DNA of 64,000 nt from Escherichia coli O157:H7 (lineage in GTDB: Bacteria > Pseudomonadota > Gammaproteobacteria > Enterobacterales > Enterobacteriaceae), in the NCBI RefSeq assembly GCF_013167455.1, contig NZ_CP038328.1. One strand, 5' to 3'. Position numbers: made by a program. This document shows, in pieces, positions 3,501 to 4,643 of this stretch. Each line of letters begins with the position of its first letter. Position 1 is the stretch's first letter.

Positions 3501-4643
3501 CTGCTTATTGTATTTCTTCATACTACCTGGACAGGTCGTTAATCAGAATTGCGAGCCTGTACCACAACCTGCACGAAACCACTGCAACAGCTGTTGAAAA
3601 GCCGGAATGTACTCTTTATTGCAAACATTTCAGGGATGAAGTGAAGATGAATTGAGACGTAGTATCCACACCAAGCCGGCGTTATCCGGTGAGGCGCAAT
3701 GTTGCGGGGGTTTTATCCCTGGTGGCATTGGTTGCTGGAAAGAGAAAACCCCCGCACGTTGAGAGGTAAAACCTGACAACAGGGCTAATCTTGAAACCAG
3801 ACACTTCAAGAATAGCCGCAAAATGTTGTCATTACAACAAGGCGGCTATATGACGCTCGCGCAGTTTGCCATGACTTTCTGGCACGACCTGGCGGCACCG
3901 ATCCTGGCGGGAATTATTACCGCAGCGATTGTCGGCTGGTGGCGTAACCGGAAGTAAGGTGAAAACGGGCGTCAGGCTGCCGTGATGGCAATATGCGCCC
4001 GAAACCGGCCGCAGGGGTAACAGCCTGCGGCCATTTTTGTCTTTATCACTTCCACAAGTAAATATTGGCAACCCGAGCTGGAAGCATCATCCAGAGCACT
4101 CATGAAACGACTGTAACAGCTGTTGAAAAACCGGAATGCACTCTTCATTGCAAACATTTCAGGGATGAAGTGAAGATGAATTGAGTCGTAGTATCCACAC
4201 CAAGCCGGCGTTATCCGGTGAGGCGCAATGTTGCGGGGGCTTTATCCCTGGTGGCATTGGTTGCTGGAAAGAGAAAACCCCCGCACGTTGAGAGGTAAAA
4301 CCTGACAACAGAACGGGGGCTAATCTTGAACCATCAACAATTCAAGAATAGCCGCAAAATGTTGTCATTACAACAAGGCGGCTATATGACGCTCGCGCAG
4401 TTTGCCATGATTTTCTGGCACGACCTGGCAGCACCGATCCTGGCGGGAATTATTACCGCAGCGATTGTCGGCTGGTGGCGTAACCGGAAGTAAGGCGAAA
4501 ACGGGCGTCAGGCTGCCGTGATGGCAATATGCGCCCGAAACCGGCCGCAGGGTAACAGCCTGCGGCCTTTTTTGTATCCGGCACCCATGAAAAAAGTCTT
4601 AACGCAGAACGCTAAGACTTTATTTTTCAAGCAAAAAAGATTA

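Follow-up and report, generated by a model that had tools for sequence, protein, structure and literature searches.

Two tandem Ldr/Rdl type I toxin-antitoxin modules between chaA and kdsA in Escherichia coli O157:H7, one of them with a lineage-specific 6-nucleotide deletion

The DNA analysed here is a window of 64,000 nucleotides (nt) from the chromosome of Escherichia coli O157:H7 (RefSeq assembly GCF_013167455.1, contig NZ_CP038328.1). Between the genes chaA and kdsA it carries two tandem modules, each with a small toxin gene (ldr) and an antisense RNA gene (rdl), and we assign this region, with a probability of about 90%, to the chaA-kdsA LDR locus of E. coli O157:H7, a pair of Ldr/Rdl type I toxin-antitoxin modules. 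The system is already known and is seen here in its ordinary two-copy O157:H7 form; the only unusual detail is a lineage-specific deletion of six bases in copy 1. The intergenic region (1,189 bp) is 100% identical to that of many O157:H7 chromosomes. Window positions 3228-4828 match EDL933 positions 1,799,900-1,801,500 as an exact string, and coordinates convert exactly (window position = 1,804,728 minus EDL933 coordinate, with strands inverted). K-12 MG1655 has three tandem units, ldrA/rdlA, ldrB/rdlB and ldrC/rdlC, at the same site between kdsA and chaA, and the LDR/Ldr-Rdl family was reportedly discovered in K-12 by Kawano et al. in 2002.

The left flank of the locus is chaA (2351-3451, plus strand), which encodes a sodium-potassium/proton antiporter, and the right flank is kdsA (4641-5495, minus strand); both assignments come from the list of open reading frames (ORFs) and the RefSeq annotation of identical O157:H7 loci. 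A repeat finder returned two pairs of direct repeats between these genes, 3505-3782 with 4034-4311 (86% identity, spacing 529 nt) and 3801-4016 with 4337-4552 (98%, spacing 536 nt). Flank or junction sequence in the first ~70 nt lowers the identity of the first pair to 86%; when five units, including those of K-12, were aligned, there was strong similarity from about 3576 and 4105 onward, the preceding ~70 nt being chaA flank in unit 1 and inter-unit junction in unit 2. From the repeat finder, this alignment and a comparison of 22 units from 11 strains, LDR unit 1 was placed at 3576-4040, from the ldr-1 promoter to its terminator, and LDR unit 2 at 4105-4575, both on the plus strand. The locus thus has the form of an LDR element, namely ~0.5-kb tandem units in the chaA-kdsA intergenic region, each with an ldr/rdl pair; the unit spacing is 529/536 nt against 535 nt in K-12, and the flanking genes are the same. 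Compared with K-12, unit 1 is ldrC-like in its 5' part and ldrB-like in its coding part, while unit 2 shows 98% identity to the ldrA unit but differs from it in the allele at the Rdl 5' end.

Each unit contains a 35-codon toxin ORF, ldr-1 at 3850-3957 (WP_000170963.1) and ldr-2 at 4386-4493 (WP_000170954.1), both on the plus strand. The Ldr-1 peptide, MTLAQFAMTFWHDLAAPILAGIITAAIVGWWRNRK, is identical to K-12 LdrB; Ldr-2 differs from it in a single amino acid (I9, ACT vs ATT) and has G29. Both peptides matched Pfam PF13940 (Ldr_toxin) over the full length of the family (1-35/35), with 91.6 bits for Ldr-1 and 87.7 bits for Ldr-2 at a cut-off of 27, and in O157:H7 loci of the same sequence RefSeq labels the two ORFs as toxins of the Ldr family. 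An NCBIfam scan of both peptides gave no match, which is uninformative since Pfam and the RefSeq annotation identify both. The peptides also carry the signature of the Ldr/Fst superfamily as defined by Fozo et al. 2010 (PMC2887945), that is, a hydrophobic helix, a conserved tryptophan and a charged C-terminal cluster ending in LAAPILAGIITAAIVGWWRNRK. According to reviews, overproduced K-12 LdrD is toxic to the cell; by analogy with this literature, Ldr-1 and Ldr-2 would be toxic as well.

On the opposite strand, Rfam RF01813 (rdlD; gathering score 50 bits) matched once in each unit over the full model, and no other rdl match was found within the 64-kb window. Rdl-1, with a predicted length of 60 nt, lies at 3743-3802 (66.6 bits, E 2e-12), and Rdl-2, of ~67 nt, at 4272-4338 (match at 4272-4337, 83.6 bits, E 7e-17), both on the minus strand. 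A distance of 48 nt separates their 5' ends, 3802 and 4338, from the downstream ldr AUGs (3850 and 4386), so that each RNA stands opposite the middle of the leader in the ldr 5' untranslated region (UTR), clear of the ldr ribosome-binding site and start codon. The two RNAs also differ at the 5' end itself, which reads GUCUGGUUUC in copy 1 and GUUGAUGGUUC in copy 2. The perfect complementarity in cis extends over 60 and 67 nt, with predicted Rdl/ldr duplexes of -121 and -137 kcal/mol, while non-cognate duplexes were predicted to be still very stable, at about -102 kcal/mol. RefSeq annotates the toxin ORFs at this locus and leaves the Rdl RNAs without annotation.

Published start-site data bear directly on copy 2. 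In a Cappable-seq study of EDL933 (PMC10469882), which covers exponential- and stationary-phase cultures in LB, minimal medium, acid and salt, a primary transcription start site (TSS) is given at 1,800,390 (+) in 8/8 conditions. This position converts to window 4338 (-), exactly the 5' end of Rdl-2; the base is the G opening GUUGAUGGUUCAAG..., 1 nt past the Rfam match, and its homologue in K-12 is the base at which the rdlA annotation begins. These data indicate that Rdl-2 is transcribed in O157:H7. Its promoter (4345-4373, minus strand; -35 TTGTAA at 4373-4368, -10 TATTCT at 4350-4345) was assigned from the sequence and the mapped start, which lies 7 nt from the -10 element. The putative Rdl-1 promoter (3809-3837, minus strand; TTGTAA at 3837-3832, TATTCT at 3814-3809), read from the sequence, shares the geometry of the Rdl-2 promoter, whose start is mapped, both having a 17-nt spacer; the predicted 5' end at 3802 (-) corresponds to EDL933 1,800,926 (+). 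On the other strand, the Rdl promoter overlaps the ldr leader hairpin and its Shine-Dalgarno (SD) region.

Most of what the first-pass annotation of this DNA had proposed is therefore confirmed. The two ~0.5-kb direct repeats that it placed at 3576-4578 exist, with similarity starting near 3576 and 4105; each holds the 35-codon ldr ORF that it described, the toxins differing by T9I as it said (ORF list and Pfam), and each has on its opposite strand the Rdl-like antisense segment, which is matched by RF01813. The covariance-model search that it suggested as a check was passed by both units (66.6 and 83.6 bits against 50), and the transcription check is answered for copy 2 by the EDL933 start at the Rdl-2 5' end. 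Its statement of three tandem copies in K-12 was also correct, MG1655 having ldrA/B/C-rdlA/B/C between the same two genes.

The ldr mRNAs were placed mainly by homology. RegulonDB, as quoted in supplementary file 6 of PMC10469882, gives a 5' UTR of 202 nt for K-12 ldrB; transferred through the alignment, this length would put the ldr starts near 3654 and 4183. The corresponding candidate promoters are, for ldr-1, 3619-3648 (-35 TTGCAA at 3619-3624, 18-nt spacer, -10 GAAGAT at 3643-3648), obtained by alignment transfer, and for ldr-2, 4148-4177 (TTGCAA at 4148-4153, GAAGAT at 4172-4177), obtained by homology with unit 1. By alignment, UTR transfer and folding, the ldr-1 5' UTR would span ~196 nt (3654-3849) and include a derived T at 3711 as well as the Rdl target. 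The terminator scan found intrinsic terminators downstream of both toxins, at 4007-4040 for ldr-1 (a 9-bp GC-rich stem followed by a T-run) and at 4543-4575 for ldr-2 (GC-rich). On the minus strand the same scan gave only short inner pairings for Rdl, and the Rfam structure and RNAfold were used there instead. Folding of the ldr-1 leader predicted a hairpin at 3812-3849, AUAGCCGC...GCGGCUAU, which sequesters the SD sequence (AAGG, 3839-3842); its counterpart in unit 2 is at 4348-4385, directly before the ldr-2 AUG. The same SD hairpin was predicted in every leader that was folded (both O157 units, the three K-12 units, unit 1 of strain TR01 and a constructed O55:H7-like unit), and its sequence arms are also found in the diverged paralogue K-12 ldrD.

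Upstream of this hairpin lies a further conserved element, a TTG codon within AAUCUUGA, which is inside the Rdl target and faces the single-stranded 5' tail of Rdl. From the ORF list and frame analysis, this TTG opens in unit 1 a leader ORF of 20 codons (3791-3853, plus strand), whose UGA overlaps the ldr-1 AUG (AUGA); in unit 2 it opens a 55-codon ORF (4326-4493, plus strand), one additional nucleotide in the Rdl 5'-end allele of that unit bringing the TTG into frame with ldr-2. The unit 1 frame is a candidate for a coupling ORF of the ldrX type. Gerdes and Wagner are said to have proposed such a mok-like leader ORF, ldrX, coupled to ldr translation and blocked by Rdl. Reviews report that RdlD represses LdrD synthesis in K-12 and that the mechanism is unresolved, and an RNase III-dependent double-stranded RNA has been captured at ldrD-rdlD in published work. 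That Rdl represses ldr in the O157 units as well would follow by analogy with K-12 RdlD/ldrD.

Under this model, each unit would yield an mRNA of ~390 nt, comprising a leader of ~200 nt, the 35-codon ORF of a small hydrophobic toxin and the intrinsic terminator, while the opposite strand would give an Rdl of 60-67 nt that starts ~48 nt before the ldr AUG and has full complementarity to the central part of the leader. With the ldr ribosome-binding site locked in its local hairpin, that site would most likely be freed only when ribosomes starting at the leader codon inside the Rdl target read through the hairpin. Pairing of Rdl would block this upstream initiation, the duplex would be a substrate of RNase III, and the toxin would be made only once the unstable Rdl runs low. 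The start codon of the leader lies within the Rdl target in all unit types and in ldrD. What appears to be conserved is an upstream start whose ribosomes must cross the SD hairpin, and this would fit the read-through or unfolding form of the coupling model. The variation of the leader frame between units argues against the need for any specific leader peptide.

Several observations weigh against the assignment as set out so far. The leader ORF does not keep a constant frame relative to ldr: copy 1 and the three K-12 units, which share the 20 codons and AUGA overlap, have it out of frame, and it is in frame in copy 2 and in K-12 ldrD, whose upstream frame is continuous with the toxin. Coupling through an ldrX-type leader is moreover a hypothetical model. 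A scan of 3440-4650 against the sigma-70 consensus found no promoter at the threshold, and the proposed promoters score at most 8/12, their basis being homology and mapped start sites rather than the consensus scan. The long-leader ldr starts (~3654 and ~4183) are not among the gene-TSS entries listed for EDL933 in the accessible portion of the Cappable-seq study, an absence to which multi-mapping of reads from the repeats may contribute. The same source gives minor primary starts on the sense strand at 3799 (+) and 4418 (+), each in 1/8 conditions; the former is 51 nt upstream of ldr-1 and 3 nt from the Rdl-1 5' end, and the latter lies 32 nt within the ldr-2 ORF. Finally, we found no published experiment on toxicity, repression or Rdl-1 expression for the two O157 units.

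We then compared the array with those of other genomes, using a query that extends across both flanking genes and 60 rows sampled evenly down a ranking of 5,440 records. Two copies were present in 17/60 rows (4 of them identical to O157) and one copy in 14/60; another 28/60 had a place covering at most 75% of the query, and the remaining row (1/60) showed only a weak ldrD-like match. In agreement with this sample, 2,834 records reached a coverage of 80% or more of the query at one place. Complete E. coli genomes are thereby estimated at ~28% two-copy, ~23% one-copy and ~48% three or more copies or disrupted, in a genome collection that is not a random sample of the species. A two-copy array is not unusual in the species. 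Individual strains confirmed the three-copy and one-copy classes as well as a two-copy class with an IS200 insertion beside kdsA; in RIVM_C036569 (NZ_CP086627.1, 4753-5211), an IS200C transposase gene lies between the last LDR unit and kdsA, and in the survey the class bearing IS200C reaches a query coverage of 75%, instead of 74%.

The units themselves fall into three types by the 5' end of Rdl. Type i (GUCUGGUUUC) occurs in K-12 units B and C and in O157 copy 1, type ii (GUUCUGGUUC) in K-12 unit A, and type iii (GUUGAUGGUUC) in O157 copy 2 and in no K-12 unit. Elsewhere, type iii was seen in TR01, SCEC020001, the first unit of Z0117EC0005, the only unit of D8 and the middle of three units in 2013C-3997. 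Among the 22 units from 11 strains, the arrays observed were i+i+ii, i+iii+ii, i+iii, i+ii, iii+i, i and iii. Recombination between the repeats is well supported by these data; unequal crossing-over between homologous units, together with gene conversion, would account for the differing number and order of units among strains. An assembly of K-12 MG1655 (NZ_CP010443.1, 1004-1646) has only two LDR units. The first resembles ldrC as far as the ORF and ldrB from codon 29 onward, which places the crossover within the coding sequence, and its product is the I9/G29 protein (WP_000170954.1) also encoded by O157 copy 2. This array is either a direct example of a 535-bp unequal crossover (a real laboratory deletion) or possibly an assembly collapse. 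In strain 23AR0998 (NZ_CM132249.1, 1205-1309), the first ldr has no stop codon (...RNRKS), carries P9 and is a RefSeq pseudogene, one unit decaying in a two-copy array.

The change that sets O157 copy 1 apart is a loss of six nucleotides at the junction 3781/3782, which corresponds to 4310-4315 in copy 2. Comparison with strain TR01, labelled O157:H7, gives GACAACA-AAACGG-GGGCTAAT as the ancestral sequence. Against the Rfam consensus and the three K-12 Rdl genes, the missing nucleotides belong to the 5' arm of the long stem of Rdl. The first-pass annotation had read this length difference as a 6-nt insertion in the second Rdl region; the difference is real, whereas its direction is the reverse, a deletion in copy 1. 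We reject the insertion since the K-12 units, the Rfam consensus, O55:H7, TR01 and the other 21/22 units all carry the six nucleotides, the deletion being found only in O157 copy 1. A 76-nt query across the junction matched 299 records at 99% identity or more, all others reaching at most 95%, i.e. having the six nucleotides; the deletion is restricted to these ~299 O157:H7-type genomes.

A second derived position in copy 1, the T at 3711, helps to order these events. Ten genomes, 8 labelled O55:H7 and 2 without a serotype label, were perfect matches to a query that has T at 3711 but keeps the six nucleotides, while a synthetic query combining the ancestral C at 3711 with the deletion had no perfect match. 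Since O55:H7 has the T without the deletion and the deletion with C is absent, C>T at 3711 came first and the deletion later; sequence comparison thus indicates that the substitution arose in the common O55:H7/O157:H7 lineage and the deletion subsequently in O157:H7. This order also led us to reject the idea that C>T at 3711 compensated for the deletion. TR01 (NZ_CP033605.1, 1501-1582) has AAACGG and a C at 3711, whereas O55:H7 has the T, and it differs from the window at few other positions of the locus; local recombination or a separate lineage may explain its state.

Folding predictions suggest that this deletion has consequences on both strands. Rdl-2 folds with a minimum free energy (MFE) of -27.3 kcal/mol (z -4.5) and keeps the consensus stem-loop/terminator intact, and Rdl-2 and K-12 RdlA/B/C together range from -26.7 to -27.3 kcal/mol (z -4.5 to -4.9). 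For Rdl-1 the predicted MFE is -15.6 kcal/mol (z -1.45); in the Rfam alignment the deletion removes 4/9 lower-stem pairs, and the upper stems and the U-run are kept. In the leaders of intact units, a C-run is predicted to pair with a downstream G-run (p >= 0.91), which gives a structure that mirrors the Rdl hairpin. In the leader of O157 copy 1 it is instead predicted to pair with an upstream G-run (p = 1.00), aided by the T at 3711, and the O55:H7-like intermediate would be bistable (0.38/0.62). Loss of the six nucleotides also shortens the G-run that precedes the leader TTG. Taken together, the models predict that the deletion weakens or shortens the terminator hairpin of Rdl-1 and refolds the ldr-1 leader.

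Whether copy 1 is still an ordinary member of the array is one question on which these data can be read differently. It is conceivable, though we hold it only tentatively, that copy 1 is no longer normally regulated, its Rdl-1 stem-loop/terminator being crippled and its leader refolded by the deletion, so that ldr-1 would be silenced in cis by structure, placed under Rdl-2 in trans, or decaying. The lost stem pairs, the drop in predicted MFE from about -27 to -15.6 kcal/mol (z from about -4.5 to -1.45), the switch of pairing partner by the leader C-run and the trimmed G-run before the TTG would all fit this possibility, as would the fixation of the derived state in ~299 genomes and a Rdl-2/ldr-1 duplex that is still predicted at -103 kcal/mol. 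This reading rests, however, entirely on thermodynamic prediction. Rdl-1 still scores above the Rfam threshold (66.6 bits), its promoter is identical to that of Rdl-2, and ldr-1 retains its ORF, its SD hairpin and its terminator in intact form, all identical to those of K-12 ldrB. A clonal lineage may also have fixed a 6-nt change that is simply neutral. The stronger statement, that the two-step change in copy 1 (C>T at 3711, then loss of AAACGG) functionally rewired it, is on these models somewhat more doubtful again.

Two other readings concern the history of the array and the antisense strand. The first-pass annotation had taken the two copies as consistent with a copy-number change by repeat recombination. 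Recombination is indeed supported, but the scenario that this implied, a K-12-like array of three copies reduced by one unequal crossover, seems improbable. In its favour, K-12 has three units, copy 1 resembles a hybrid of ldrC (5') and ldrB (coding), and the same C/B chimera stands in the two-copy MG1655 assembly. Against it, loss of one unit from the K-12 array would not give the O157 array, because the GUUGAUGGUUC allele of copy 2 is in none of the three K-12 units; further strains have this allele, among them one with a single copy and one with three copies, where it is in the middle unit, and two copies are common, so that with ~28% two-copy and ~23% one-copy genomes three is not demonstrably the ancestral number. 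Far less probable still is that the antisense strand under Rdl holds a genuine protein-coding ORF, with the mapped transcript as its mRNA. The ORF list contains two such frames on the minus strand, 4159-4308 (49 aa, copy 2) and 3630-3821 (63 aa, copy 1), and in the EDL933 annotation on which PMC10469882 relied, the start at window 4338 (-) is assigned to a plus-strand hypothetical protein, locus 30305, which is apparently the 49-aa ORF. This ORF, however, begins within the Rdl hairpin and extends beyond the Rdl terminator, and current RefSeq annotations, for EDL933 as for further O157:H7 strains, no longer keep it; in copy 1, the ORF begins before the Rdl-1 start site and hence would not lie on that RNA. 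Pfam gave no match for either Rdl-strand ORF or for the leader peptide, and with no family match all of them were rejected as genes, the antisense-strand ORFs being probably artefacts that overlap Rdl.

This array can be set beside several known systems. It shares with K-12 ldrA/B/C-rdlA/B/C the intergenic site, the architecture of the ~535-bp unit and one protein (LdrB = Ldr-1), and each O157 unit shows 96-98% identity to the nearest unit of K-12. It differs in having two units rather than three, in Ldr-2 (I9, G29), which no K-12 protein equals, in the third Rdl 5'-end allele of copy 2, 1 nt longer and with its leader TTG in frame with ldr, and in the Rdl-stem deletion and C>T at 3711 of copy 1. 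With K-12 ldrD/rdlD, the characterised member and namesake of RF01813, it has in common a 35-aa toxin with a WxxxRK-type tail, an antisense RNA opposite the 5' UTR, the SD-hairpin arms and the conserved leader block; ldrD is, however, a single copy at another locus (bcsG-yhjV) with ~80% DNA identity and a toxin of diverged sequence (MTFAELGMAFWHDLAAPVIAGILASMIVNWLNKRK). The mechanistic analogue that has been proposed is hok/mok/sok, of plasmid R1 and of chromosomal homologues, with a long leader, an antisense RNA that lies off the toxin ribosome-binding site and control through an upstream coupled frame, whereas for Ldr the coupling ORF ldrX is a proposal; hok/mok/sok has no sequence homology to ldr, and its 3'-processing or fold-back step is undocumented for ldr. 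The zorO/orzO-zorP/orzP and ibs/sib systems are likewise tandem type I modules in one intergenic region whose copy number varies between strains, and there near-identical antisense RNAs can tell their targets apart, but they belong to other toxin and RNA families, and the Orz RNAs are divergently encoded rather than overlapping. Fozo et al. 2010 counted four Ldr/Fst genes in O157:H7 EDL933 and inferred lineage-specific duplications (PMC2887945).

Elsewhere in the window, two IS3-family insertion sequence (IS) elements of 1,313 nt (32765-34077 and 37796-39108) lie in inverted orientation with 95% complementarity, each containing an ALIL frameshift pseudoknot (Rfam RF01497; 33103-33219 on the plus and 38654-38770 on the minus strand). 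The pair flanks a 3.7-kb segment with two long ORFs, 34934-35848 and 35944-37680, which we take as putative ldcA and cvrA from their lengths and the synteny with O157:H7 PV15-279. In PV15-279 no IS is annotated at the corresponding region and cvrA is truncated; the IS content of this region therefore differs between O157 strains. In addition, 48665-48743 on the minus strand is a full-length match to the C0299 small RNA family (RF00119, 111.9 bits).

Overall, the locus is a textbook LDR array and as such matters little beyond annotation, where the Rdl coordinates given here close a gap. The differing leader frames across unit types offer a simple comparative test of the ldrX coupling model, and the 6-nt deletion provides a clean marker of the O157:H7 lineage as well as a natural mutant for the Rdl stem-loop and its sense-strand mirror. 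The one detail that might deserve an experiment is the O157:H7-specific erosion of the Rdl-1 hairpin together with the predicted refolding of the leader. If the prediction is true, Rdl-1 would be without a strong terminator/stability hairpin, the ldr-1 leader would adopt an alternative fold, and the putative ribosome-binding G-run of the leader ORF would be trimmed. A toxin gene identical to ldrB in its product would then be locked off or dependent on Rdl-2 in trans, which would make this locus a natural case of antitoxin erosion and cross-regulation in a tandem type I array.

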